DNA from: Pseudomonadota bacterium
GTDB lineage: Archaea; Thermoplasmatota; SW-10-69-26; JACQPN01; JAJPHT01
Direction of reading: 5' to 3'
Length of the DNA: 62,286 nt
NCBI GenBank assembly: GCA_021325135.1
Contig: JAJPHT010000012.1
Location: 1-62,286, forward strand
The translations under genes and the position numbers were made by a program. The number at the start of each line of letters is the position of its first letter. The first letter of the stretch is position 1. Below, piece by piece: positions 1 to 59,099 of this stretch. The notes below the pieces were generated by a model. That model searched no databases, was not told the origin of the DNA, and worked only from the letters and a program-made list of their open reading frames with translations.

Positions 1-1066
1 GACCTTCGAAAGAGAAAACGGGGGGCGGGGCGGGGGTCGGAGGGGGAGGGGCCGGCGAGGCCCCTCCCCCTGAGTGGTGGGGGAGAGCGGGGGCCTCCGG
101 CCCCCGCGTGGTGGAGGGTCCGGGAGGCTCCGCCTCCTGGCGGTGGGGGTGCGGGGGCTCCTGCCCCCGCTTCGGGCGGCTCCGCGCGTATCTCGCGTGC
201 GCGTGCGCGTGCGCGCGGTGCGTGCGACTGCCGCCCGCCTCGGGGGCAGGTCCCTTCCCCCGTCCTCTCCTCTGCCCCCGGTCGTCTCCTCCCACCCGCG
301 GGGGCACCGCGCCCCCGCTGGCCTCCCACCCGAAGGGGGAGCCGCCTCGCGGGCCTCTCCCCCCTCGACGCTGCCGGCGGGCGCGGCGGGCGTGTTGCCG
401 CGCGCCCGCGCCCCCGGCGGCGGTGTTGCGTGTTGCGCCGCGGCCCCACCGCGCCGGCCCGCGCCGCGCAGCGGCGCGCGGCCCGGCGCGTCGTGGGCCG
501 CGGCCCGGGGTCCGGGGCCTTGGCCCCGGCGGGGGTGCGGGGGCAGCGCCCCCGCGTCGGGTCCTCCGCGATGCGCGCCCTCCTGTGCCGGGTCCAGGGG
601 AGCCGGGAGCCCCTGGAGTGGCGGGCATCGCGTGAAGGCGTCGTCCATCGTCGTCCGACGCCGCCGGGGGGCCTCGCCCGCCCCCCGGCGGTGGCGGACG
701 CCATCAACCGGCCCAACCTGTTGCACGTCGCGGGCGGGCTCCCCGCGCTGCCCGCGTGCGTCACGATCTACACGACGGGCGCCGCGCTGTGCATGGCGTT
801 GCCCGGCGCCACGCCGGGCGACGACTCGCACCAGGCGGCATCCTCGCCCCGCGTCGTGTCGGGCGCGCGCACGCGCCCGACCGTGGGGGCTCCGGGGGCC
901 GCGGCCCCCGGCGGGAGGGGAGCGGGGGAGGGCAGCGCCCTCCCCAAGAATCGCACGACGCGGGATGCGCGGGGGTTCGCAAGGGGGCGCGCGCCGCCCG
1001 CGCCCCCTTGCTTGGCCCGGGGGGTATTCGGGGGGCGCGGCCACGGAGCGCCCCCCGCTCGCAGGG

Positions 1067-1181: not shown

Positions 1182-2435
1182 TCACTTCCAGTTGCTTTCG
1201 CGTATCGACTGATACTGCGCTTGATAGCTCGAAGTTGAGTCCTGAGCAGGCTGCACGCGCCCTTCAACCGCCTTGACGAATGCGGGGACGAATGCAGGGC
1301 CGACGACTCCCCATCCTTGCTGTGCGGCGCCGCCGACAATCGGGACCGTGACGACGAACACCTTTCCGAGCACCGGGCTTTCCTCGGGTTCGCCAGTCGG
1401 ATTGAAGTCCGTCGGACCGAAGCGAATGGCGCTCGCGTTCGCCGCCTCTCGCATCTGGTGGGCGCAATCCGGACTGAGCGCCCGGCAGAATCCGGCTTCC
1501 CTCAACTGAGCCAATCCCTCTGCGAAGGCGCCCGCCGCGGTCGGAGTGCTGAAGCTCGTCCCGCTGCGCCAAGTGTAGTTCTCGGTACTCGTGGCCGTCG
1601 GTGCGAAGGCCGTAACGTTCGAGATGAAGTCCACGCCATGCGAACTGTCCGCAGACGTGCCGTTCGTGGATGGCTCGAAACCGCCAATGCAGATGATCCA
1701 CGGCGGCCCGCAAGTGTAACTTTGCATCGTCGGGCTTGGGTCGTTGCCCGCCGCCGCGACAACCAGTTTCCCTTCCGACGCTGCGAGGCGCGTCCCGTCA
1801 AGGTACGTCTGCATCTCGGGATGCAGGGACGGATCATCAGGAGGATTGCCGGGGTTTCCAAAGCTGATGCTGATGACATCTATCCAAGGCTGGTGTGCCG
1901 CCCATGCGACGCCGTTCGGCAAGCTGGGGTCGATTAGACAAGAGGTTGTGCAAAGGCCGCCCGAGCCCTGGATCGCCACGATCAGCGACGACTGCGCGAT
2001 CTTCGCCACCACGCCCGCGGTCGCGGTCCCGTGGCTGCTCGAATCATCGAGGATGAAGCTCCCCTTCGTCGTGTTGAGCATCGAGATAGCAACGACGCGA
2101 GTCCCCGCGAAATGGTACAACTGACCGGGCTTGAGGGAACTCCACATACCTTGGTCGGCCTCGATGCGATCCCCGAAGGAGCCCGTCTGAGAGAGGTTGA
2201 CCTCCGTGACCGGAACACCGATCATCCTTGCGACGGTGCCGTTGTCGAACTCGTGTGACCTGAATGCCTCGTGATAGGGGTTAATCCCTGAATCAACCAC
2301 GGCGACAACAACGGGCCTCACGACTACAGGTTGTGACCCGTTACTCGGGGCCGGCGGCTCCGAGGTGGTGCAACCGGCCAGCAAGAAAAGCGCCAGGAGG
2401 ACAGGCAAGAACGCCGCCGTTCCCCCGTGTCGCAT
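1182..2435 (-). CDS. Subtilisin-like S8 serine peptidase, lipoprotein
   Basis: Lipobox LLAGC; catalytic motifs VVDSG, HGTATAG, AAAGN, GTSFSTP; ATG 2435 chosen as start. Confidence 0.9.
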   Translation of the reverse strand: MRHGGTAAFLPVLLALFLLAGCTTSEPPAPSNGSQPVVVRPVVVAVVDSGINPYHEAFRSHEFDNGTVARMIGVPVTEVNLSQTGSFGDRIEADQGMWSSLKPGQLYHFAGTRVVAISMLNTTKGSFILDDSSSHGTATAGVVAKIAQSSLIVAIQGSGGLCTTSCLIDPSLPNGVAWAAHQPWIDVISISFGNPGNPPDDPSLHPEMQTYLDGTRLAASEGKLVVAAAGNDPSPTMQSYTCGPPWIICIGGFEPSTNGTSADSSHGVDFISNVTAFAPTATSTENYTWRSGTSFSTPTAAGAFAEGLAQLREAGFCRALSPDCAHQMREAANASAIRFGPTDFNPTGEPEESPVLGKVFVVTVPIVGGAAQQGWGVVGPAFVPAFVKAVEGRVQPAQDSTSSYQAQYQSIRESNWK

Positions 2436-2549
2436 GATGGCGAGACGACCGAACGACCTACAAGAACTTTGTTGCGCCGTACCCCTTGCAACAGGCGCCA
2501 AGAATGTTCAAATATGGCCCCCTGCCTCGGTAACAACGGGGTACCAAGC

Positions 2550-2804
2550 TTGAAGGCAGTTCTCCCTGCATTGACCACACTTTGTTTCCTGTTCCTCTCG
2601 GGGGTCGCCGCAGCCTCGCCCGGTGTCAAGATCGAGGTCATCGTCAGCTGCGACGGGGCCGATCCGGAGTCGTGCGTCTGCACCCTGCCGGGCGACCTCT
2701 GCGACGACGACTGCCCGATCAACGATCCGCACCTGCTGGCGAATTACGGCGACGACCTCCACCAGTGTCTTGCCGCCGTCCTTCCGTTCCCCCCGCCGAT
2801 CTGA
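2550..2804 (+). CDS. Small secreted Cys-rich acidic protein
   Basis: Signal-peptide-like N-terminus then 6 Cys; ends 12 bp before the next ATG; start uncertain (TTG 2550 or ATG 2514). Confidence 0.6.
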   Translation: MKAVLPALTTLCFLFLSGVAAASPGVKIEVIVSCDGADPESCVCTLPGDLCDDDCPINDPHLLANYGDDLHQCLAAVLPFPPPI

Positions 2805-2816
2805 AGGTGACTCCAC

Positions 2817-4340
2817 ATGACCCGGTGGGGAATCCTCTGCGTGGCTGCAATCCTCCTAGCTACGCAAGTCCCCACCGAGCCGGCAAGTGCTGGCGGTTCC
2901 GTCAACGCCACGGGCGCAAGCGTCGAAGTCCGCGACGGCTTCCAAGACTGCTCGCAACAGACGACGCACTTCTGCGAATACAACGTCTCGAACGGCAACG
3001 ATCCTGCGAATGCGACGATCGACGCCTATCAACGAATCGACTTCGTGGGCGTCACCGTCGATTCCACCGCCGTGAATCGTCTCCTTGGGTCGCACGTCGT
3101 CGGACGGCAATCGGTTCAGATCAACGGCAATAGCACTTACTTGCCTAACCCTCTCCTGCCGATGGTCAGCGAGGCTTGGACCGAGATTGACGCGCAGCGT
3201 CCCGGGCGATCCCTCCTCGACGTTGAGATGAGCCGTGAGAACGTTTCTCTCGTCTATCCGATGATCCGTTACAACACGTCAGAGCCGATCGGCTGGAATT
3301 GGCTCGCCTTCCCTTATCCAGATGACGGAGGGATCGGCTACGATCGGATCGGCCCGTACAACGCGCCCGAAGGCAACAGCACGGACGGATACCTCGAACA
3401 GGATCAGCGCCTTCTCTGCGACTACCCGGGGATCGACACCTACTGCAATCCGGTGGTTGGCGAGACGCGAGAAACGTTCACGGCCACGGCGCCGAACGTC
3501 ATCGTCGGCGCCGAGTTCTACAACGCTTCGATTTCGGTTCGTGAGGGCAACGTCTCCAACGCAACTTACTACTGGACAGGCTCAGATTGGGTGTTCTATC
3601 CGAGATATGATTCCGGCAACTTGCCTAGGATCGTGTTCGATTCTACGCCGTTCATCCATCAGAACTGGACGTTCACACCTCCAACGGATCAGCGACCCAT
3701 GATCCCGCCGAAGGCAGCGCCCACGCGGGGCACGACCGGCCCGCAGAGCGAGTCCGAACACACCGTCCCCAATTGGACTGTTGCGGTCGTTGCGGCTGCT
3801 GCCGGAGCCCTGCTCCTTGCTGCCGCAGCGGTCCTCTACTCTCGCTTCACGAGCAAGAACGCGCTTCTCGCCTCCAAGAGCCGCCAAGAACTCTTGGCGC
3901 TCATCGACGCGCATCCGGGCATATCTCCTTCAGAAGCCGCAGCCAAGATGGGCTGCCGGAGAAACAATATCATGCACCATGCCCGCGTGCTGGAGAAGGC
4001 GGCGTTCATCAAGATCGTCGCCACGAATGGGCGCGCGTTCTTCTACCGATCCGGCCAGGAAGTTCCACCCCAGGAAATCGCGGTCGCGCATCCCGTGGCG
4101 CAAGCGATCCTCCGGCGCATCCGCGACGGCGGGCCGGCAACGATGCAGGAGCTTCTCGCTGCCTGTGGAGACACGCCGCAACGCACCTGCTACTATCATG
4201 TTGCACGCCTCGTGAACGCTGGCCTTCTCACCGTGGAAACAGTCGGTGAGAGTCGGAAGATCGGGCTCCCTTCGGAGAATAGCCCCGAGGCTCCGCGGTC
4301 TGTCGCCCCCGCGACTCTCACCGCGCCCGCGCCGATCTAG
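2817..4340 (+). CDS. Membrane-anchored transcriptional regulator (extracellular domain, TM helix, tandem wHTH)
   Basis: Signal peptide; TM VAVVAAAAGALLLAAAAVLY; then two ArsR-like wHTH motifs (HPGISPSEAAAKMG..HHARVLE and ..TCYYHVARLVNAGL). Confidence 0.85.
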   Translation: MTRWGILCVAAILLATQVPTEPASAGGSVNATGASVEVRDGFQDCSQQTTHFCEYNVSNGNDPANATIDAYQRIDFVGVTVDSTAVNRLLGSHVVGRQSVQINGNSTYLPNPLLPMVSEAWTEIDAQRPGRSLLDVEMSRENVSLVYPMIRYNTSEPIGWNWLAFPYPDDGGIGYDRIGPYNAPEGNSTDGYLEQDQRLLCDYPGIDTYCNPVVGETRETFTATAPNVIVGAEFYNASISVREGNVSNATYYWTGSDWVFYPRYDSGNLPRIVFDSTPFIHQNWTFTPPTDQRPMIPPKAAPTRGTTGPQSESEHTVPNWTVAVVAAAAGALLLAAAAVLYSRFTSKNALLASKSRQELLALIDAHPGISPSEAAAKMGCRRNNIMHHARVLEKAAFIKIVATNGRAFFYRSGQEVPPQEIAVAHPVAQAILRRIRDGGPATMQELLAACGDTPQRTCYYHVARLVNAGLLTVETVGESRKIGLPSENSPEAPRSVAPATLTAPAPI

Positions 4341-7767: not shown

Positions 7768-8661
7768 ATGAGTTTCGATTTCATCACGCTTGTTCAACTT
7801 CTGCCGCCTATCGTGCGCTTTCTCGTCGCCGGATGGTTGTTCAACAAAGGTCGTCCAGTTCCCATCGCCATTGGCCTTGTCGTCTTGGCCGCGGGCATCG
7901 TTGGCCTCGGGAACCGTCTCGTTGATCTTGGCTTCCCCGAGTCGTGGCGGACCTTTGCGCTGACGACCTATCCGTTGCTCTTGCCGGCCTTGGTGTTCGT
8001 TTGGATGGCGTTCCACCCCTGGCAAATACAGAACCCGAGGGCGAAGGCCGTTCTTGCCGTGGCGGGTGTCGTGGCGCTCGCGTTGGCGGCATGGCTCATC
8101 AACGACTCGTGCGCGTGGTTCTGTTCTACCAAGGCCGGCCCGCACGCTGGCCCCATCTATGTGCTGGCGTCAATGCTATCTTTCGCCTACCTCTGGCTCG
8201 CGCTCCTGCTCGCCCGCGACTCGATCAAAGCAGAACCTATCCTCGACCCCGCCGCGGGCGAAAGCGCCTCAATCATCGTCGCATGGACGGGCCTCAGTTT
8301 CTTTGGCATTATCGCAGCCAACGCAATCATGGGCTATTTCAACTACGGAGGCCAATGGTTCGGCAACAGTGTTGAAGTCCTGCTCGGCCTGGGCGATCTT
8401 GCGGTCCTCGTATGGGTTGCGTGGCCGTGGGGCCGGTCCATACCGGGGTTCCGCGCAGGCTGGATTCTCCTCTGGGGCGGCTTCGCCGTCCTCCTCGGAA
8501 TGATCCGCGCTGGCCTCACGGACAGCCTATGGGGCGAGGACAGCGACCTTCCCGTGATCCTCTACTCCCTGTGGGGCCTGGGCGTCACCGTCGCGCTCTA
8601 CGTCGCCCTTTCCAAGTCCGGCGCCTTCTTGGAGGAGGCACCTCCGGAAGCCATGCCCTAA
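7768..8661 (+). CDS. Multi-pass membrane protein, unknown function
   Basis: About 8-9 hydrophobic segments. Confidence 0.8.
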   Translation: MSFDFITLVQLLPPIVRFLVAGWLFNKGRPVPIAIGLVVLAAGIVGLGNRLVDLGFPESWRTFALTTYPLLLPALVFVWMAFHPWQIQNPRAKAVLAVAGVVALALAAWLINDSCAWFCSTKAGPHAGPIYVLASMLSFAYLWLALLLARDSIKAEPILDPAAGESASIIVAWTGLSFFGIIAANAIMGYFNYGGQWFGNSVEVLLGLGDLAVLVWVAWPWGRSIPGFRAGWILLWGGFAVLLGMIRAGLTDSLWGEDSDLPVILYSLWGLGVTVALYVALSKSGAFLEEAPPEAMP

Positions 8662-8672
8662 GCTCGGCCTGC

Positions 8673-8813
8673 CAGCCCAAGTTTTGATCCTATCTTGACT
8701 TCAAAAGTTGGGCTGCAATCCATCATCAGGCACCCACCGACGCACGTTCAGTCCTCTACTTGCTGAAAGCAATAGTAGAGGACTAGTAACGTGGTCGGCT
8801 GGGTGGAACGCCT
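8673..8813 (+). repeat. Bipartite hairpin unit A
   Basis: Stem 8673-8687/8701-8715 with loop TCCTATCTTGACT; 86-nt rod hairpin 8728-8813. Confidence 0.9.
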
Positions 8814-9340
8814 CTGAGGGATCGCTGCCCGTCCCCAACGCAGCCCCGACAGGCCGACCCCATGCGAAGCCAGCGGACGCACGCGCAGCATCGGAAGCGC
8901 GAAGCGCCAGGATCGCGCAGGCGCCACGCTCGATGCCTCGCGGCTCCCGCCCGCCGCGCTCGCGCCGGATCGCGCCTTGTGCGCGCTCCCGGACGGCTTC
9001 TCCATGATCCCCGCGCCCCGCTGCGTCGGCGTCGTCGTGACGATCTACGCGACCCCGCCCGCGCGCTCGACCCCGCCCGCTGTGAAGGGCGGCTCGCCCG
9101 TGTTGTGGGCGAAAGTGAACGCCGACCTCGCCACCAGAGCGCCGTCCCGAGTGCAACCCTTCACGTCATCCTCTGGCCTTTGGCGTGCCGATGGTCGAGT
9201 TCCTGCCCGTGCGCGTCGGACTCCTGGCCGGCGGCGCCCTGGGCGGTGTCGTCGCGCGCCGCATCGCCCTCCGGGTCCGCCTCCGCCTACGCCTGGAGGT
9301 CGAGGCCGGCGACCCGCCGCCCCCGTGATCGCGCCGGCAC

Positions 9341-9482
9341 CCGACCTCTTCGCCCGCGCCATCTTGACTTGGGAAGAGTCGGCAACGCGATTCACGCCCG
9401 CCGCGGACGAATAGGCGCCCCCTATACGCTCCCCTTACCAAAGGGAGCGTATATGGGAGGCGCCACTTCCGTGACGCGGCGG
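9341..9482 (+). repeat. Bipartite hairpin unit D
   Basis: Bulged stem with loop ending CCATCTTGACT (9369); ~85-nt hairpin 9398-9482 with core TATACGCTCCC/GGGAGCGTATA. Confidence 0.8.
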
Positions 9483-9563
9483 ACCGACCGTCGAAGCGCT
9501 GGGCCATGACTCGCCTCCTCTGCCGACTCATCCCCCCGCCCCGCCTTCTCTCCTCGACGCCTC

Positions 9564-9601
9564 CGCGCGGCATGGTTCACCGAAACCCATGATATTGGAC
9601 C
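9564..9601 (+). promoter_or_regulatory. Repeated promoter/operator, copy 1
   Basis: 36/38 identical to 10264-10301; GATATT lies 29 bp before the ATG in both copies. Confidence 0.7.
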
Positions 9602-9619
9602 TCGACGTACCGGCTTGCC

Positions 9620-10243
9620 ATGCGTCGAGTCCAGCGCCGAACGCTCAGGCAAGACGAGCGCGTGCGCGAAGCCTACACGCGCGCTCCCAACGACTATGGC
9701 TTGGCGATCTACGCGGACCTTGGCACGCGCGCCCAGGCGCGCAACAGCCGCAAGCGCATGGGCCTCCCATCGCTCGCGCGCGCGCACCGTCCCCGCAACC
9801 AGAAGGAGCACGACGCGCGCCGCCGCCAGCTTGTCGAACACCCCGAGTGGTCGAGCGCCCAGCACGCCGAGGCGCGCGGCATCAGGCCCAGCGCGTGGCG
9901 TCAATGGCGCTGGCGCGAAGCCCACAAGCCTCTGACTACGCCGCCCACGGAGGCGCACGCCGCGAGCTGGGGCCAGCTCGTAGAGCAAGCCCTCCGCGCC
10001 GGCTACCTGCCCAGCCGCCGCACGCGCCTGCTCTGGTGGCGCCGCCGCCCACCCGTCGTGTTCCTGCTCCGCTTGGCGATGCTCCCGCCCCGCCTCGCCT
10101 GGATCGCGCCCCCGACCGCGCCGCCCGTGCTCCTCCGCGCGGACCTCGCCGCCGAGCTTGCACACCTCGCCACGCACGGCCTGAGCGCCGCGCTGGAGGA
10201 GCCCGACACCGACGCGGGGGCGATGCCCGCGAGCGTGATCTAG
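9620..10243 (+). CDS. Basic putative DNA-binding (HTH-like) protein
   Basis: HPEWSSAQHAEARGIRPSAWRQWR resembles an HTH; follows the repeated promoter. Confidence 0.65.
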   Translation: MRRVQRRTLRQDERVREAYTRAPNDYGLAIYADLGTRAQARNSRKRMGLPSLARAHRPRNQKEHDARRRQLVEHPEWSSAQHAEARGIRPSAWRQWRWREAHKPLTTPPTEAHAASWGQLVEQALRAGYLPSRRTRLLWWRRRPPVVFLLRLAMLPPRLAWIAPPTAPPVLLRADLAAELAHLATHGLSAALEEPDTDAGAMPASVI

Positions 10244-10263
10244 TCGCCCATGCCCTCGACGCT

Positions 10264-10301
10264 CGCGCGGCATGGTTGACCGTAACCCATGATATTGGAC
10301 C
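10264..10301 (+). promoter_or_regulatory. Repeated promoter/operator, copy 2
   Basis: CGCGCGGCATGGTTGACCGTAACCCATGATATTGGACC, same spacing to ATG 10320 as copy 1 has to ATG 9620. Confidence 0.7.
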
Positions 10302-10439
10302 ACGCCGTAGGCCAGGCGCATGGACGTTCACCAGGCGCCCGCGCTCCTCCTCTCCCTCCTCGTCGGCTCCCTCGTCCTCGTCGCGCTCCTGGGCCTCCTG
10401 CCAGTCGGCCCCGCCCGCGCCGGTTGCCTTGCCGGTGAA

Positions 10440-10820
10440 GATCCCGACGACGATCCCCGCCGCCGTGCGCGTCACGATCCCGACGCACACGACGTGCGCG
10501 GACTCCGTCACGATCTGGACGGACTCGCGCTCTACGATCCGCCCCGCGCGCTTCTCCGCGGCGAGGATCGCCACGATCCCCACGAACACCGCCACGGGCC
10601 GGACGATCCGCGCCAGGATCACGACGAACCCCGCCGCGTTCGCCACGATCCCGACGCACGCGCCCACGATCCACACGACGAACCGCACGCGGTTCCCGTC
10701 AGAATCGAGCCCGATCCCGTCAGGAAGTACGATCCGACTCCGGCTGGATCGCACTTCGCTGCGTCGGAATCGAGTTCGATTCCGTCAGGAAGTGCGATCC
10801 CGGATCGCACTTTTGGATCG
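10440..10820. repeat. ACGATC/GATC-rich low-complexity repeat tract
   Basis: About 17 GATC by hand count, 9 of them as ACGATC, with ACGATC spacings all multiples of 3. Confidence 0.8.
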
Positions 10821-11238
10821 GACTCGACGCACCCGAAGCCGAGCCCTCGACGTGCCGCGCGCCTGTGGGCCTGGCTTGCGTCACGTTCGGCACACCCGCT
10901 CCGAAGGTTCAAGATGCCTCACGCGAACAAGGATGGCGGCGCTCGCCGCCTTCGACGCGGCGAGGACAACCACGCGCCGCCGGCCATGCCCGGCGCGCGG
11001 GGGCACACCGCCCGCGAGCATTCGGGCCGCGGGATGGGAGCCGGCACGGTTCTACCGCCGGCCTCGCCCACCCGCAAAGGCGGGTCCAACTTCCTCGCCC
11101 TCGTCTCGTCGGCTGCGATCCACGCCAAGGATCGTGACCAGTCCTTGCCGACGCTTCGGCCCTCCCCTAGCTCGCCCCATGTCTCACCCTCGACCGTCGC
11201 ACCCGCAACGCGCGCCTGCGAGCCTTCGCGCAAGCCCA

Positions 11239-11356
11239 GGACCCGAGCTTGGCTCGTATTCTTGACTCCAACTCGGGTCCATTCTCATGGCAATTCGCGC
11301 CGTGGCCCCTTGCCGAATAGTAGAACCCTAGTGCTACTATTCGGACTGGGCCACGG
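11239..11356 (+). repeat. Bipartite hairpin unit C
   Basis: GGACCCGAG(C)TTGG/CCAACTCGGGTCC stem with loop CTCGTATTCTTGACT; long hairpin 11300-11356. Confidence 0.85.
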
Positions 11357-11560
11357 ACGCAGCGATAATCCCACTGGAAACCGGAGCCCGAAACCAACCC
11401 ATGACCCACGGCCCGGACCCGATCTAGGCCGAGCGGAACCAAGATGCACAACCTCGCAGCGAACCGACCGCCGCATGGTCCTTCGCCGCGCCCCCGGCTT
11501 CCTCCTCACGATCTGCACCGCGATCCGGCGCACGCGCGCCGCCTGCTCTCGAAGCCCTCG

Positions 11561-11697
11561 GCCAACTTTGGGGCGCTATCCTGACTCCCCAAAGTTGGCA
11601 AACCCGAAAAAAGGCACCCGCCGTCCCACGTCGAGTATCCTACCTATCGAAGATAGTAGTAGGATACTAGTAACGTGGTCGGCAGGGTGGAACGCCT
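11561..11697 (+). repeat. Bipartite hairpin unit B (homolog of unit A)
   Basis: Perfect 13-bp stem with loop CGCTATCCTGACT; 86-nt hairpin 11612-11697. Confidence 0.9.
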
Positions 11698-12113
11698 CTT
11701 CGGGATCGACGCCACACCCAACACCACCCCCAACCTTCGGGCCGGTGCGGAAGCCGGAAGTAGTACCGGAACGCGACCCCGCCCCCGTGTCCTTCGCTCT
11801 CCTCGTCGCCACGATCCCCGCGGCCCCCTCGCCCGCCATCCTCGCCAAGCTCGCCGCCCTCCTGGGCCTCGCCCTGGTCGCCCTCGTCCTGCTCCCGCCC
11901 CGGCGCGAGCGCGACCGCGCGCCGCCCCACCAGGGCGACGACGCGCACGACGACGGCGGCGCGGAGGCGGCCCGCGTGCTGCACGAGGACCACGGCGCGC
12001 ACGTCGGCGCGACGATCTACGCGACGACACAACCCGCCTTGTGTTCGACGCCACCCACGCCAAGGCGGGGCCGGCGCCAGGACCCAGGCCAGGAAAATCT
12101 CTCTCTCCGCGCG

Positions 12114-12451
12114 CTCCTCCCCTTTCTTGACTCAATGGGTAGCGCGCACGACGACGCCTCCTCCGGCGCCGTCACCGTGACGGAGAGCCCGCGCTCCCGG
12201 CCCAAGCTGGGCCGCGCCCTCTCATGGACTGAAGAAAGAGTAGAGATTCAGCAAAAAAAGAAAAACCGCGCCGCCTCGGCCCGCGCCCAGGTGCCGGCTC
12301 CTGGCACCGGCTCCCGGCTCGTCCTGGGGCTCCAGAAGATGTGTGAGAGATGCGGAACGCTACTCTTTCTTCATTCCATGAGGCGCGCGAGCCATCATGC
12401 CTCCGCAGGATCGCCGCGCCGCCTCTCATGGAGTCAAGACAAGGGGAGAGC
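12114..12451. repeat. Four related ~20-bp motifs in alternating orientation
   Basis: 12221-12243 and 12360-12382 are 22/23 inverted repeats; ~12120 (+) and ~12427-12450 (-) both contain TCTTGACTC. Confidence 0.8.
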
Positions 12452-12567
12452 CCCACCCACGCACAAGCACGCCACGAGCTCTAGGCGCTGCGCCCTGGCA
12501 ACTAGTTGCCAAGCCGAAAGACCGCGGAACAGTACCCGGCTAATACTACCTGACCAACCAGGGAAGG

Positions 12568-12909
12568 ATGAGACTCCCCGCCTTCGCGCTCCTCGCGCTC
12601 GCGGCGATCCTCGCGCCCACCCGGAAGGAGGCCGGCGCCATGCTGGAGCCTGACGGCCTCTCCTCGATCCTGCCCGACGCCGAGGAGCGCCGCCGCTACC
12701 TCTCGACGCTCCACCGCCTGTCAATGGGGCACGTCACGCCTGCGCGCCTCGCGGAGCGCGCGAAGCTCATGCACCGCGCCGCCCAGGTCCGCGCCGCGCT
12801 GCGCGCTGACCCGCGCTTCACCCGCGTCCGCGAGCCCGCGGGCGGTCCCGAACGCTATGCGCTTCGGCCCGAGCACCGCCACGGGACGCGCCAGGAGGCG
12901 AAGGCGTGA
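12568..12909 (+). CDS. Hypothetical protein
   Basis: High-GC3 codon usage; stop overlaps the next GTG; alternative start at ATG 12640 after GGAGG. Confidence 0.65.
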   Translation: MRLPAFALLALAAILAPTRKEAGAMLEPDGLSSILPDAEERRRYLSTLHRLSMGHVTPARLAERAKLMHRAAQVRAALRADPRFTRVREPAGGPERYALRPEHRHGTRQEAKA

Positions 12910-13082
12910 CGCGCTATCGTTTCGCCTTGTGGCCGCCCTCCGAAGCCTGGAGGAACGGCTACCTGTGGGGCGCCCCGCTCCCAACCTTCCGCGCGAAGTA
13001 CCCCGAGAAGGTCAAGGAACACGGCGCTCCCTTGCGCGTGTGGGACACGGACAACGACAAGAAGCAGGCCGAGGCGGACTAG
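12906..13082 (+). CDS. Small hypothetical protein (58 aa, not in ORF track)
   Basis: GTGA coupling to the upstream gene; MTRYRFALWPPSEAWRNGYLWGAPLPTFRAKYPEKVKEHGAPLRVWDTDNDKKQAEAD. Confidence 0.6.
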   Translation: MTRYRFALWPPSEAWRNGYLWGAPLPTFRAKYPEKVKEHGAPLRVWDTDNDKKQAEAD

Positions 13083-13282
13083 GCGCCGCGTCTCGTGGTA
13101 TGCGAGCGGGGATGGGACTTCCCGCCGCTGACTTGCGCTTTGCCGGTCTTTGCGTCCGTGTTCTTGCTGGCCGTCCGCTTCACAAAGTCGGCGTAGCTCT
13201 CCGGCTCGCTGAAGCCCTCTGCGTGGCTTGCGTAGCTTTCGGGGAAGCGCGAGGGGTCGCGCGAGCGGGACGCACGTCTCAT
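13079..13282 (-). CDS. Small basic hypothetical protein
   Basis: Tandem PESYA repeat; shares a CTAG convergent stop with the 12906 ORF. Confidence 0.45.
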   Translation of the reverse strand: MRRASRSRDPSRFPESYASHAEGFSEPESYADFVKRTASKNTDAKTGKAQVSGGKSHPRSHTTRRGA

Positions 13283-13369
13283 CTTGGGTCCCTATGGGTC
13301 GTCCACGCAGTTCAACAACATGGACGCCGGGCGCAAGCTTGCCTAGGTGCGGTCGGCCCTGTGGGGCGC

Positions 13370-13639
13370 TTAGGGCTTCTGGACGCTCCAGCCTTCACCC
13401 TTCTCGCGGGGGGCTTGCAAGATGCCAAGGACGCTGCCTTCGGGGTCCGTCACGGCCCAGGCTCCCCCCTTCGCGGGAGCCCACACGAGGCGAGCCAAGG
13501 CGGGCTCATGCGGCGAGCGTGAGAAGGGCGCCCCGTTGAGGAGGTCCGCCGCGGTGCGCGCGTCCATCTCCGCTTTCGTGAAGGCGGCGGCGATCTGGTG
13601 CAGCCGTTCGTTGACCAAACGATGCGCCGGAGCCTCCAT
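13370..13639 (-). CDS. Hypothetical protein
   Basis: ATG 13639 MEAPAHRLVNERLHQIAAAF..; protein-like composition; lies downstream of the integrase. Confidence 0.55.
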   Translation of the reverse strand: MEAPAHRLVNERLHQIAAAFTKAEMDARTAADLLNGAPFSRSPHEPALARLVWAPAKGGAWAVTDPEGSVLGILQAPREKGEGWSVQKP

Positions 13640-13881
13640 AGGCGAGCCGCGAAGCAGGGCGGCCCCTCTTGATCCCATCGAACCTGCACCGCCCGCGAAG
13701 CCAAAAGCGCACGCGCCAAGGGCAAGGCTCGCGCCCGTTGAAGAGGAGGAGCCACCGCGTCCCTGTGTGGGAGGCCGGAGGCGCAAGACCCAAGAAGGAA
13801 GGCCACGGATGGCCTGCCCGGGCCGGGGTCTGAAGCCTCCTCGCACAACCTTCTTCCCCGGCCTCCTACTCCCTGCGCGAT

Positions 13882-15051
13882 CTAGACCGCGCCCGCCTTC
13901 ACCGCGCGCAGCAGGCCCGCCACCGTCTGCGCGGTGGCACGGCTTGGCATCGCCCGCTCCCAAATCTCACGCGCACCCACCACCGGCATACAGCGGTCGT
14001 ACCAATAGCGAACCTCGGGGATGCCCTCGACCTTGCCAAACTTCGTGTAGTGGCCTTGCGTCGTGTCGGGCGTGTTCTCGTTGCGGCTCAACAGCGAGTC
14101 GCCGCGCAGCACGGCCACGATATGCGAGGGGCAGCCGGAGGGCGCGGTGGGCCGCTTGCGCTTCAAGCAGCTGGTGAAGCTCCTGCGCGCCGTGTGCATC
14201 GTGATCTCCGTCTCGCGGTTCTTCACGGTCTTGGCAAGCGGGCTGTTGGCGACGATCCGCTTGATCCACTTGCCAAGCTGGTTCGCGGTAATGTGCCGGT
14301 TCTTGCCCTGCGGGCTCGGCATCAAGTAAGGGTTGCCGGGGTGGTCGCGCTTGTTGCGCTCGACCTTGAGCCGCAGGAAAAACTCTAGCTCCTCGTCAAA
14401 GTAGGCGCGCAGGTAGGTGCGGCGCGGGTGGGGATCAAGCTCGATGGTACGCGATTGCCAGTCGATCCGATCCATGCGGATTCCGGCAAACTCCTCTCGG
14501 CGCACGCCGAGCTTGAACGGGCCGAGGACGGTCAAGAAGTCGTCCAACGACTCGCAGCCAAGGAGGAGTTGCGCGACTTCGCCTTCATCGAGCGCGCGCA
14601 GGTCGGGATGCAGCGCGGCGCGGTTCTTGCGCTTGAACACGCGGATGAGCGGGAAGAACGGGTTCTGCGTGGCGAGGCCGCGCACGTCGCGCAGGTAGTT
14701 GAACAGGCTGCTTCCCTGGAGAATGTGAAGAAGGACGCTCGTGGCCTTCAACGCGCCCTTCTTCGTGCGGCCTTCGTAGTCCGCCGTGGGGAGCCACGAG
14801 ACGTAACGCTGCGCCTCGGTCCGGTCGATGCTCAGAAGGTGCAGCTTCTGGCGCTCGCAATACTCCACAAGATGCTTGCTCGTCTTGCGCCACGCCTTGA
14901 GCGTGTCCGACACGCATTCGACTTCCGCGACCTTGAGCCAGTCGTCCACAAGCTGACGGCTCGTGTATTGGCGCCGCGCTGCCTCCGCAAGCTTCGCTTG
15001 GTACTCGCGGTTAAGCTCCTCAATCGTGGCGATACCCCGCGCGTTCGCCAC
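13882..15051 (-). CDS. Tyrosine recombinase/integrase, archaeal LRGD type
   Basis: N-terminal SAM-like core-binding region; GVRREE (R), HTARR (HxxR), LRGD in place of LLGH, GHYTK (Y). Confidence 0.92.
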   Translation of the reverse strand: MANARGIATIEELNREYQAKLAEAARRQYTSRQLVDDWLKVAEVECVSDTLKAWRKTSKHLVEYCERQKLHLLSIDRTEAQRYVSWLPTADYEGRTKKGALKATSVLLHILQGSSLFNYLRDVRGLATQNPFFPLIRVFKRKNRAALHPDLRALDEGEVAQLLLGCESLDDFLTVLGPFKLGVRREEFAGIRMDRIDWQSRTIELDPHPRRTYLRAYFDEELEFFLRLKVERNKRDHPGNPYLMPSPQGKNRHITANQLGKWIKRIVANSPLAKTVKNRETEITMHTARRSFTSCLKRKRPTAPSGCPSHIVAVLRGDSLLSRNENTPDTTQGHYTKFGKVEGIPEVRYWYDRCMPVVGAREIWERAMPSRATAQTVAGLLRAVKAGAV

Positions 15052-15825
15052 CTAGGCCACCTCCTCCATCGGCTCGGGCTGCTTCGCCAAGCGATACCGC
15101 ATGTCCTTGCCCTTCGTGATGAGGTCAAGCCTGCTCGCGCCCTTGATCGCGTCCCCCGCCTCAACCTCCGTCAAGCCCTCCGACATGAGGCGTTCGACCA
15201 ACTCGGGGCGGCGCAGGCCCGCCGACACGGACAGGGCCTTGACGATCAGGAGCGTGGGCCGGGGGATCGCCTCGACTTCCGCGCCCGCGCTCATCGCGCG
15301 CTCCCGGTTGCCCTGGTCGGTCCTGGCGAGGTCCACGACGTAGCCCGCCAAGCTCTGCGCGCGCTCCGTCGCGTCGGTGAGGCGGCGCTCCAAGTCCGCC
15401 GCGTGCTTCTCCGCGTCGTCCCGGTCCCGCGTGGCGTCGTCGCGCTCCCGCGTGAGCTCTAGGACCCGCTTCTCAAGCTCGGCCACCCGGCCCGCGTCCT
15501 GCGGGTTCCCCATGAGTCCCGCCGCGAAGCTCGGATCGCGCAGGCGGCAATACTGGAGGAAAAGCAGGGGGTCCTTGCGCGCGCCCAGGATGAAGCGCGC
15601 GTATGCGCTCGCGTCGGGCCGCCGCTGGCTCCCCCCTGGGCTGTGCTGGCGGGCCTCCTCCTCAAAGGCCGCCTTCTCCTGGGCGCTGAGATAGACCTTC
15701 AGGAAGATGCGCTTCCCGCTCGCCTCCTCTTCCTCGACGGGCGCCGGGGCGGGGGCGGGAAGCGGGTGGTGGTGAAGGGCGCTGGCACGCTTGGCGACGA
15801 ACATAGGCTTCTTGTCTCCGGGCAT
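15052..15825 (-). CDS. Integrase-associated RHH + coiled-coil + wHTH protein
   Basis: LKVYLSAQEKAAFEEEA..SAYARFIL RHH-like segment, heptad region, C-terminal wHTH; TAG abuts the integrase GTG; start uncertain. Confidence 0.75.
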   Translation of the reverse strand: MPGDKKPMFVAKRASALHHHPLPAPAPAPVEEEEASGKRIFLKVYLSAQEKAAFEEEARQHSPGGSQRRPDASAYARFILGARKDPLLFLQYCRLRDPSFAAGLMGNPQDAGRVAELEKRVLELTRERDDATRDRDDAEKHAADLERRLTDATERAQSLAGYVVDLARTDQGNRERAMSAGAEVEAIPRPTLLIVKALSVSAGLRRPELVERLMSEGLTEVEAGDAIKGASRLDLITKGKDMRYRLAKQPEPMEEVA

Positions 15826-15954
15826 CCGGAGTCCCACGCCAAGGGGGGCGACCCGACTACTAAGGCGGTCGCCGGAACCCGCAAGAACCCCCAAACACGG
15901 GTTCCCCTGCGGGCACCTTGAGAGGACTCCAAGAGGCCCGCATAGTCATAGGAG

Positions 15955-16123: not shown

Positions 16124-16273
16124 GGGGGACTCCGTCCCCCAAACCCCCACAACACCCGAATCTCAGAATCTCCGAATCAGCGCCGCGACAAACACTCGCG
16201 AGTGGTTTTCTCCTCGGGGATTCCGAGATTCGGAGATTCGGGTTTCGCGGGGGTCTGGGGGCGGCAGCCCCCA
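16124..16273. repeat. REP-like palindromic element
   Basis: ACCCGAATCTCAGAATCTCCGAATC ... GATTCCGAGATTCGGAGATTCGGGT inverted arms; GGGGACTCCGTCCCCCAAACCCC also occurs at ~43095. Confidence 0.7.
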
Positions 16274-33911: not shown

Positions 33912-33964
33912 GGGTCCAAAGAACGCGACGGGCGCTCTTCGCGCCCGTCGCGTTCTTTGGACCC
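33912..33964. repeat. REP-like palindrome, short copy between convergent genes
   Basis: GGGTCCAAAGAACGCGACG..CGTCGCGTTCTTTGGACCC. Confidence 0.85.
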
Positions 33965-42038: not shown

Positions 42039-42154
42039 CTGGTCAAGGGTCCAAAGAACGCGACGAGCGCGAAGAGCGCAAAGGACGCGATGAAAGGAGA
42101 CTTTGCGACCTTGGCGCTCTTTGCGCTCGTCGCGTTCTTTGGACCCTTGACCAG
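42039..42154. repeat. REP-like long palindrome
   Basis: CTGGTCAAGGGTCCAAAGAACGCGACGAGCGC..GCGCTCGTCGCGTTCTTTGGACCCTTGACCAG. Confidence 0.88.
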
Positions 42155-53578: not shown

Positions 53579-53698
53579 CCTGGTCCAGGGTCCAAAGAAC
53601 GCGACGAGCGCCACGAGCGCGAAGGACGCGACGACGAAAGACGCCGTCGCGACCTTGGCGCTCTTCGCGCTCGTCGCGTTCTTTGGACCCTTGACGAG
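53579..53698. repeat. REP-like long palindrome
   Basis: Same family as 42039-42154. Confidence 0.88.
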
Positions 53699-58386: not shown

Positions 58387-58780
58387 GGTTCCGCAGGAGC
58401 CCCAGGAGCGAGCCCACGAGGCCGAGGATGCCCGCGATGGTGCCCGCGAGGCCGGCGAAAAAGATGAGCACGATGCTGAACGCGAGCCCGAGGATCGCGC
58501 CTTCGGTGGGCTTCGTGCGCATGTTGGCGAAGGCCAGGAGGAGGAAGACGCCGAAGACGAGGGCGACGGCGTAGCCGAAGACGGCGGACGCGTTGCTGGC
58601 GACGGCGAAGCCGGGCAGGCCGATGTTGTCGCCCGCCAGCTGGAGGAGCACCGTGAGCGTGCCGAAGCCCAGCGCGCAGATGGCGGCCAGGAGGACGAGG
58701 AGCCGGTCCGTGCCGATGCGCTCCAGGGCGTTGCCCCAGGTCTGCGCGGGCTCTTCCGTGGGCTCTCCGGCGAGGGTCAT
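58370..58780 (-). CDS. Four-TM membrane protein
   Basis: Hydrophobic helices; host codon usage. Confidence 0.75.
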   Translation of the reverse strand: MTLAGEPTEEPAQTWGNALERIGTDRLLVLLAAICALGFGTLTVLLQLAGDNIGLPGFAVASNASAVFGYAVALVFGVFLLLAFANMRTKPTEGAILGLAFSIVLIFFAGLAGTIAGILGLVGSLLGLLRNLKLVA

Positions 58781-59099
58781 GGCCAGGCAGACGGGCGGGC
58801 GGGTTTGAGCCCTTCGAGACGTTCATCGAACCGTGGGCCGGAACCGGCCTGGGCTCCGCCGACGAGGGTGGGGCCATGCGCTCGCAGCCCGCAGCCTGGG
58901 CCGCCTCCCTCCTGGCGGGCCTCCTGGGGTGGATCGCGGGCCCCAGCCTGGCCGCGCTCCTGCCCGCGGCGTCGCGGGCGCCGCCCCTGGCCTTCGCCCT
59001 CTCCCGGGGGCTCGCCTGGGGCCTGGCCGGCGCGACGCGGGCCCTCCTGGCCCCGGGCCACCCCAATCTTCAAGCGGCGGACGCCCCTGAGCGAAATCC

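Follow-up and report, generated by a model that had tools for sequence, protein, structure and literature searches.

Two long hairpins of matching shape and partly different sequence stand about 2.9 kb apart in the genome of an archaeon assigned to the Thermoplasmatota, and this locus raises the question of what maintains such structures and what they might do. The DNA analyzed was the first 62,286 nucleotides (nt) of contig JAJPHT010000012.1 (GenBank assembly GCA_021325135.1, forward strand), here termed the window. The host is archaeal, with a TBP gene present and a GC content of ~ 70%. The two hairpins, termed rod A and rod B, were found to be the second halves of two-hairpin units, homologs of which lie directly upstream of genes for a protein, P0020, that resembles rolling-circle initiators in predicted structure. 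The rod is probably a folded-DNA element of a rolling-circle-type origin.

Folding and compensatory change in rods A and B

A preliminary description of this DNA, made from the sequence, had reported two 86-nt hairpins at 8728-8813 and 11612-11697, and both coordinates and sequences were verified. It had also proposed a comparison of DNA and RNA folding energies, and either way the two rods lay well below their shuffled counterparts (z score about -7). Folded as RNA, the + strand gave -49.7 kcal/mol for rod A and -43.9 kcal/mol for rod B (z -7.5 and -7.1), values matched by 0 of 200 shuffles, while folding as DNA gave -29.9 and -26.0 kcal/mol (z -8.0 and -6.8), with no shuffle as good. The complementary strands folded equally to the + strand, both as RNA and as DNA.

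The two rods could be aligned without gaps on a common structure of 31 pairs, and a standard pair was present in every cell of this alignment. Seven pairs were changed on both sides and none on one side only, in agreement with the seven compensatory changes first described, and all seven lay within the upper helix of 15 base pairs (bp). When the partner columns were slid in the alignment as a control, the number of two-sided changes dropped to 0. The GAA triloop and the TA bulge were shared by both rods, as had been described, and the conserved 3′ side was found to span 33 nt, from CTAGTAACG to GAACGCCTCT, being the same in A and B save for one bulged base and occurring twice in the window against 0 expected. 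The helix was found to extend 10 nt below the limits first drawn, giving rods at 8718-8822 (A) and 11603-11704 (B), and this basal extension contributed two more compensated pairs (G-C to U-A and A-U to C-G). The 5′ arm of the lower stem carried five uncompensated changes between A and B, with bulges moved. The compensated changes were grouped in the upper helix, as three adjacent pairs and then four of five adjacent pairs, and because they are clustered they may stem from only two or three events, for example, template switching within the palindrome.

The suggestion that selection acts here on pairing and not on protein was also borne out, since reading frames through rods A and B were incoherent as coding sequence and pairing was retained in an alignment of four rods from independent elements, described below. 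A common protein frame across the rods is open in both copies and was rejected, the codon scores being negative for A; homologous open reading frames (ORFs) downstream of A and B were likewise ruled out (E 0.18), and no HUH motif was present in any frame of window 8600-13900. Both rods are real and are selected to fold.

Four two-hairpin units in the window

Rods A and B lie in a region of low coding signal (8660-13800) that is part of an island of ~ 15 kb, one end of which is formed by a tyrosine integrase gene and its partner gene. The window holds four two-hairpin units, A, D, C, and B, all on the + strand. In unit A, hairpin 1 (8676-8712) has a stem of 11-13 bp and a 13-nt loop, TCCTATCTTGACT, a putative nick-site-like motif by its sequence (DNA fold -11.4 kcal/mol, z -5.6). 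It is followed by the rod (8718-8822, with a GGAAC 3′ bulge at 8805-8809) and then by a box, placed from alignments at 8819-8830, that reads GGGATCGCTGCC and has the family consensus G/C-R-ATCGCTGSC. In unit B, hairpin 1 (11561-11599) has a perfect 13-bp stem and the loop CGCTATCCTGACT (DNA fold -15.0 kcal/mol, z -5.9), and is followed by the rod with its extended base (11603-11704) and by a box at 11702-11714, GGGATCGACGCC, again taken from alignments. The hairpin 1 stems of units A and B differ, and the 13-nt loops both contain TATCTTGACT or TATCCTGACT (ATCYTGA).

Unit D comprises a hairpin 1 at 9342-9381, the loop of which includes GCCATCTTGACTT, and a rod at 9398-9482 that is unlike rods A and B in sequence (RNA fold z -8.1; DNA fold -36.2 kcal/mol, z -9.1). 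In unit C, hairpin 1 (11239-11280) has the variant loop GTATTCTTGACTCC, and the short rod (11297-11360; DNA fold -25.9 kcal/mol, z -9.3) has a 5′ arm, AATAGTAGA..CTAGT, similar to the 3′ arm of rods A and B. The motif TCYTGACT occurs six times in the 62-kb window, against 1.7 expected, and all copies lie between 8693 and 12439; beyond those in A and B, two are in hairpin loops followed by rods (units D and C), and some are outside hairpins.

Two other repeats lie near the units. A motif of ~ 21 bp akin to the hairpin-1 loop (CCCTTTCTTGACTCAATGGG) is present in four copies of alternating orientation at 12119-12445, the inner pair forming a 23-nt inverted repeat around 116 bp, and this cluster could be a set of recombinase or regulator sites. 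An 11-mer, CGATCTACGCG, has three copies (9041, 9705, and 12013), all of them on the + strand and none outside the island, and it is located ~ 300-390 nt 3′ of rods A and B.

The preliminary description had asked for a search of Rfam, and this gave no match on the rods even at E <= 5, so that no known RNA family was recognized; in the window as a whole, the Rfam covariance models yielded only a tRNA at the gathering score. BLAST with the unit returned only A and B in its own genome and nothing in 14 other genomes of the order. A covariance model, R1, picked up A and B alone in this genome, and a sample of 150 other genomes from the phylum gave it no match; exact-pattern scans for the A/B rod type in genome and viral contig collections gave 0 hits. 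Fifteen metagenome pattern matches were discarded as rod copies, being chance matches within coding DNA with no hairpin. With a second covariance model, R2, rods of greater divergence were still missed, and in a tblastx comparison of the island with a related contig of genome G012 any signal was swamped by compositional noise. The A/B rod sequence type is therefore known from two copies only in this genome.

Homologous units upstream of the P0020 gene

Homologous units were found by genomic context. One Logan contig (locus L023) encodes an integrase, P0008, that is 56% identical to the island integrase, and carries a unit in the same relative position and orientation as in the window, with the hairpin-1 loop CCCCATCTTGATT. 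Its rod, of 75 nt, shares with rods A and B the GCCACCC 5′ end and the GGGTGGAGCG 3′ end and was scored by R1 at 16 bits (local E 4e-4), and the unit directly adjoins a gene encoding P0020, a protein of 405 amino acids. An exhaustive search for relatives of P0020 produced 32 clusters, and each of the genes inspected was preceded by a unit on its sense strand, at 12 or more loci (L023, L026, L027, L028, L029, L030, L031, L037, L038, L040, L041, and contig C39 of the window's own genome). This set of homologs is small and comes partly from one genus.

At these loci the order of the unit, from 5′ to 3′, is hairpin 1 (loop C/T-ATC-Y-T(T)-GA), rod, GGARCG, and the ATCGCTGSC box; in the loci linked to a P0020-family gene (here termed rep), the box is followed by an A-rich tract and then by the gene. 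The rods are 64-175 nt long and start 5-25 nt past hairpin 1. GGARCG stands at the 3′ base of the rod and is missing in the C39/L038 type, and a box of the rod A/B kind is also found 3′ of the rods in L026, L027, L028, L029, L037, and L040. The loop core ATC(Y)T(T)GA is common to 16 units, with TGA invariant, and is carried on at least nine unrelated hairpin-1 stems. Column-wise pair counts on hairpin 1 were abandoned, as the MAFFT alignment was out of structural register, and the stems were listed directly.

Thirteen further rods gave DNA folds with z scores of -5.0 to -9.8, and their middles could not be aligned. In the four alignable rods (A, B, L031, and L027), 95.7% of cells were paired and 22 of 31 pairs had changed on both sides, which none of 500 shuffles equaled, although the alignment was fitted to the model and so leans toward structure, and covariation counts of this kind depend on such model-fitted alignments. 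Between the rods of L028 and L029, one T and its partner A have been lost and the stem stays perfect. A 2-nt bulge recurs on the 3′ arm of the rod, reading TA in A, B, L023, and L027; a fixed spacing from TATA to GGARCG on this arm was also considered, and rejected when gaps of 8-30 nt were found. The distance from the loop motif to GGARCG is 101-130 nt, whatever the rod between them, and folding of the rod would set these two conserved unpaired motifs side by side.

P0020 as a candidate initiator

The P0020 family has invariant residues C61, C83, C88, and C91, H189 (within PHxD), and Y283-S-x-R286-P, together with near-invariant H174 and D191, a consensus LVFTLP block, and a zinc finger. The order of these motifs appears to match that of motifs I-III of rolling-circle initiators. 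Searches with P0020 of Pfam, PHROGs, and PDB sequences gave nothing. An AlphaFold2 model of the protein was confident, with a mean predicted local distance difference test score of 90.8; its best structural matches were almost all HUH nickases (Z 5.0-7.7), including parvovirus NS1 (7.7), TrwC (7.5), F TraI (6.8), adeno-associated virus Rep (6.6), and SIRV1 ORF119 (6.0), as well as Helitron and RAYT proteins, and Foldseek was in weak agreement. By its motifs and this model, P0020 looks like an HUH initiator.

The NCBIfam model for IS91 transposases, NF033538, matched four of five family members tested at 50, 38, 21, and 13 bits (E values of 2e-13, 1e-9, 1e-4, and 0.04) against a cut-off of 125. 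The Pfam domain Zn_Tnp_IS91 was faint in the family (E 0.012, 2 of 21 members), as was Rep_1, and DUF7845 (PF25227) had no match in the island proteins or in the P0020 family. A sample of 401 genomes from the phylum contained the family in 8, mostly members of the window's genus, with up to four copies per genome (G012).

A probable rolling-circle origin and its proposed mechanism

The interpretation favored here, with moderate confidence, is that the element is an origin-like signal of Thermoplasmatota integrative mobile elements that encode a zinc-finger HUH-type initiator of ~ 400 amino acids. It is also fairly likely that this initiator is related to IS91 transposases and to the Rep proteins of the pC194 type, and the hairpin-1 loop motif presumably resembles the CTTG-type sites of pC194-type plasmids. 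The initiator would nick the + strand in the hairpin-1 loop, within or beside CTTG, and the adjoining rod would have to fold. It could do so as a cruciform, if the DNA is supercoiled, or as a hairpin once the + strand is displaced. The GGARCG that is unpaired at the rod base would thereby come to lie beside the nick hairpin. The folded rod could then be a second recognition or specificity site for the initiator, or a site for priming of the complementary strand (a single-strand origin). A specificity role is favored by the hypervariability of the rods between elements of one host, and a structural or priming role by the upper stem, which keeps its pairing and not its sequence.

The preliminary description had already proposed a + strand, single-stranded DNA role for the rods, as an origin or recognition site. 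That proposal gains from the homologous units, with their nick-site-like hairpin upstream of an HUH/IS91-like gene, but the argument from the stability of GNA triloops on which it was founded does not hold, as the rods of homologs end in CCT, GCCTA, or loops of 4 nt or larger, and GAA occurs elsewhere only in L027.

Several observations weigh against a rolling-circle origin. Neither the window nor the contig that carries it (C26) yielded a P0020-family gene when all ORFs were searched with a profile; units A, D, C, and B are orphans for this reason, and no cognate protein was identified for the A/B rod type. In units A and B, the A-rich tract typical of the rep-linked loci is also absent. The fold matches of P0020 are middling (Z < 8), and its metal motif is HxD and not HUH. 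Template switching can yield clustered compensatory changes without one selected event per pair. Finally, both strands of the rods fold equally, and the active strand is therefore deduced solely from the positions of the conserved unpaired motifs.

The same genome has a P0020-family gene with its own unit on contig C39 and a partial one on contig C45. Orphan units (six) outnumber gene-linked ones (one) in this genome. The units of the window could be relics of decayed or tandemly accreted elements, or they could be sites usable in trans by an initiator encoded elsewhere. On C45, at 58680-59036 of the - strand (locus L042), two tandem bipartite units lie 213 nt apart with no P0020-family gene nearby, forming a second orphan array; their rods are of the GCACCGCC...GGTGGAGCG kind.

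Comparison with known origins

A rolling-circle origin is made up of a nick site plus a bind site, and is distinct from the single-strand origin (PMC5714925). Single-strand origins are long palindromes, imperfect in their pairing, that work on one strand (PMC5714925, PMC1851628). The homologous loci are like the double-strand origins of pT181 and pMV158 in having a conserved nick sequence in a hairpin loop, an element-specific palindrome beside it, and an adjoining initiator gene. They are unlike them in that the second part is a rod of 64-175 nt whose sequence turns over with pairing kept, and not a short duplex repeat read by protein. Other differences from rolling-circle plasmids are the placing of the rod immediately 3′ of the nick-like site, the archaeal host, and the undescribed initiator family. 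In most plasmids, the single-strand origin is placed upstream. The rod with its conserved unpaired GGARCG fits the design of a single-strand origin in a general way, although the terminal loops are not conserved; to our knowledge, no archaeal standard for such origins exists.

The origin of the archaeal provirus SNJ2 has a conserved nick hairpin and a non-conserved inverted repeat, of which only the 3′ half matters (PMC13107129). The present elements are like SNJ2 and the Rep-Arvir replicons (PMC13107129) in being archaeal and integrative, in having an integrase and partner module, and in combining a conserved hairpin with a non-conserved inverted repeat. In SNJ2 it is the 3′ half of the repeat that matters, and in rods A and B it is the 3′ arm that is invariant. 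Unlike the present family, Rep-Arvir is a DUF7845 protein, Rep_trans-like with a winged helix-turn-helix (wHTH), and the proteins tested here had no match to DUF7845; in SNJ2, the origin is also downstream of rep and has an inverted repeat of ~ 11 nt.

Alternative interpretations

There is a small but real chance that the units mark the ends of a transposon of the rolling-circle type, similar to the oriIS and terIS of IS91, and that P0020 is a transposase and not a replicase. The rods would then be subterminal palindromes at which strand transfer starts or stops, and the array would have arisen by one-ended or aborted transposition. Among database families, relatives of P0020 indeed match only the model for IS91 transposases and, faintly, Zn_Tnp_IS91. 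Multiple copies per genome (four in G012; two genes and six orphan units in the window's own genome) and the direct orientation of units within arrays would fit a transposon too. IS91 ends have subterminal palindromes by CTTG, with two at the oriIS of IS91 and IS801, and single-stranded DNA circles and one-ended transposition are described (PMC13181058). The hairpin-1 loop motif resembles, by analogy, the CTTG-type sites of IS91 (PMC13181058), and further likenesses are a nuclease of the HUH type (predicted for P0020) with an N-terminal zinc-binding region, imperfect palindromes, and CTTG at the cleavage or target site. However, P0020 relatives reach 50 bits at best against the model cut-off of 125, and CTTG is inside a hairpin loop. 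A single unit was seen per rep locus, and contigs of 7-11 kb showed no second end. The unit is in every case on the 5′ side of the gene, whereas the two-palindrome oriIS of IS91 is 3′ of tnpA (PMC13181058). The elements are also large (10-20 kb), carrying integrases or Prim-Pol/ParB genes and an A-rich tract by the unit, which gives them a more replicon-like appearance.

It is rather unlikely that the rod acts as RNA, be it a structured 5′ leader, a small RNA, or an antisense regulator of copy number for the downstream gene. The predicted RNA fold is very stable, the unit is always upstream of the gene and on the same strand, and structured countertranscripts commonly control rep in rolling-circle plasmids. 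G-U pairs, however, are rare and show no strand bias (19 of 581 pairs, or 3%, on the + strand and 31 of 581, or 5%, on the - strand), no AT-rich promoter-like box precedes hairpin 1, no + strand T-run follows the rod, and the L028 rep gene has a TATA-like box of its own between the unit and the ATG, ~ 26 nt from the latter. These four features favor DNA over RNA, as do the lack of an Rfam match and the conserved letters, which occupy loops and bulges, that is, unpaired positions, of the gene-sense strand; the conserved loop motif is, moreover, similar to HUH nick sites. The signs are thus that the active form of the rod is DNA.

The orphan units might still be working parts of non-autonomous cassettes served in trans by an IS91-like initiator, for example, from a C39-type element, but this is improbable. 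A nick at one hairpin-1 loop and a stop at the next unit in the same orientation would release a single-stranded circle, such as one of 2.9 kb from A to B, with the hypervariable rod determining the initiator to which a unit responds. If true, such cassettes would be an archaeal counterpart of gene capture by ISCR or Helitron elements, with a built-in specificity code.

A very unlikely reading is that the rods are palindromic protein sites used as duplex (operator, promoter, or centromere-like) and never fold. Rods A and B share an invariant 3′ arm, the upper stems are rich in AT in a setting of 70% GC, and TCYTGACT is confined to 8693-12439 and lies partly outside hairpins, all of which could be accommodated by a duplex site. 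The sequence of the upper stem, however, is free to change as long as it stays paired, which a dimer reading the sequence would forbid; rods of 64-175 nt with conserved bulges are ill-suited to a dimer site, and the conserved letters are at positions unpaired in the fold.

An integron-like cassette array, with the rods as attC-like folded sites of the neighboring tyrosine integrase, is highly improbable: like attC, the units are folded single-strand sites of conserved structure, variable sequence, and extrahelical, bulged bases, set in direct orientation 0.3-2.9 kb apart and 2-5 kb from a tyrosine recombinase, but they have no R/L boxes (RYYYAAC/GTTRRRY), the base being AGGC/GCCT and ACCC/GGGT with the GGAAC bulge, the integrase is of archaeal and not IntI type and scores weakly against Phage_integrase (E 1.3e-5 only), and the units go with the HUH-like P0020 gene, also at loci that lack a nearby relative of the integrase (L026, L027, L028, and C39), while integrase relatives occur without units (L021/L025, L024, and C19). 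Retrons, IS200/IS605 ends, and TnpB omega RNA were also considered and rejected, as no reverse transcriptase, TnpA, or TnpB gene was found.

Implications

The units differ from known systems in their initiator, which is not of the DUF7845 type and is IS91-like below threshold, in their long and fast-changing second hairpin, and in their position 5′ of the gene. Outside halophiles and hyperthermophiles, little is known of how archaeal mobile elements replicate, and the present work offers a candidate for an unnamed HUH, IS91-like initiator family of Thermoplasmatota integrative elements, for which there is no Pfam model, together with its cis signal, a nick-site hairpin and a long rod with rapid compensatory turnover. 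The unit could be used as a substrate in nicking and binding assays, and the covarying series of hairpins is a natural set for the study of how initiators tell their own origin from others. Should the unit replicate, it might be developed as a vector origin in a phylum for which genetic tools are lacking. The orphan arrays, which have no initiator gene, raise the question of trans-mobilized cassettes in archaea.

The island and other features of the window

The tyrosine integrase gene at the boundary of the island (13882-15051, - strand) has Pfam and PHROG integrase matches, and its homologs are named as Thermoplasmatota integrases. The partner gene (15052-15894, - strand) is kept together with the integrase in relatives. 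No DNA matching the island was found in four congeneric genomes, no integrase relative was confirmed in the genome contig collection, and the ORF at 9620-10243 had no homologs. A second module of integrase, partner, and a 113-amino-acid ORF is located at C19:30056-33240, with 56-65% identity to window 12568-15894, and no hairpin unit was detected near it.

An S8 protease and a 507-amino-acid protein encoded at window 1182-4340 have paralogs in the same order at C39:25682-28823 (43% and 27% identity). The 507-amino-acid protein is secreted and has two C-terminal wHTH domains, and the paralogous pair lies upstream of the C39 unit. From this shared gene order, the C26 island and the C39 element appear to be related mobile elements of one family.

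Within the island, a 46-nt direct repeat (91% identical) is present at 9564-9609 and 10264-10309. An ATG (9620 and 10320) follows 11 nt after the end of each copy, with GATATT ~ 26 nt upstream of the ATG, and the repeat is probably a duplicated promoter for leaderless mRNAs. The adjoining stretch at 10320-10830 is GATC-rich (19 GATC in the 10-11 kb bin vs 1-8 in most other bins) and contains four iteron-like 22-nt repeats (10470, 10506, 10569, and 10641) and a 120-nt hairpin (10705-10827); its coding signal is ambiguous between + and - frames.

Elsewhere, window 1-1000 has 81% GC, far above the remainder of the contig, with ORFs open in several frames. A 148-bp imperfect palindrome at 16125-16272, with two 74-nt arms that are 77% complementary and GAATCTC repeats, adjoins the right end of the island and lies upstream of a KdpD-like histidine kinase gene. 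Separate near-perfect palindromes of ~ 100-105 bp were found at window 33912-33964, 42047-42146, and 53588-53690, with ~ 26 more on other contigs. Their arms start GGGTCCAAAGAACGCGACG, their inner blocks are modular (AGCGC-NNN-GAGCGC), and they occur in both orientations and fold to -104 to -110 kcal/mol over 141 nt. These palindromes are unrelated to the rods in sequence and look similar to repetitive extragenic palindromes or miniature inverted-repeat transposable elements.

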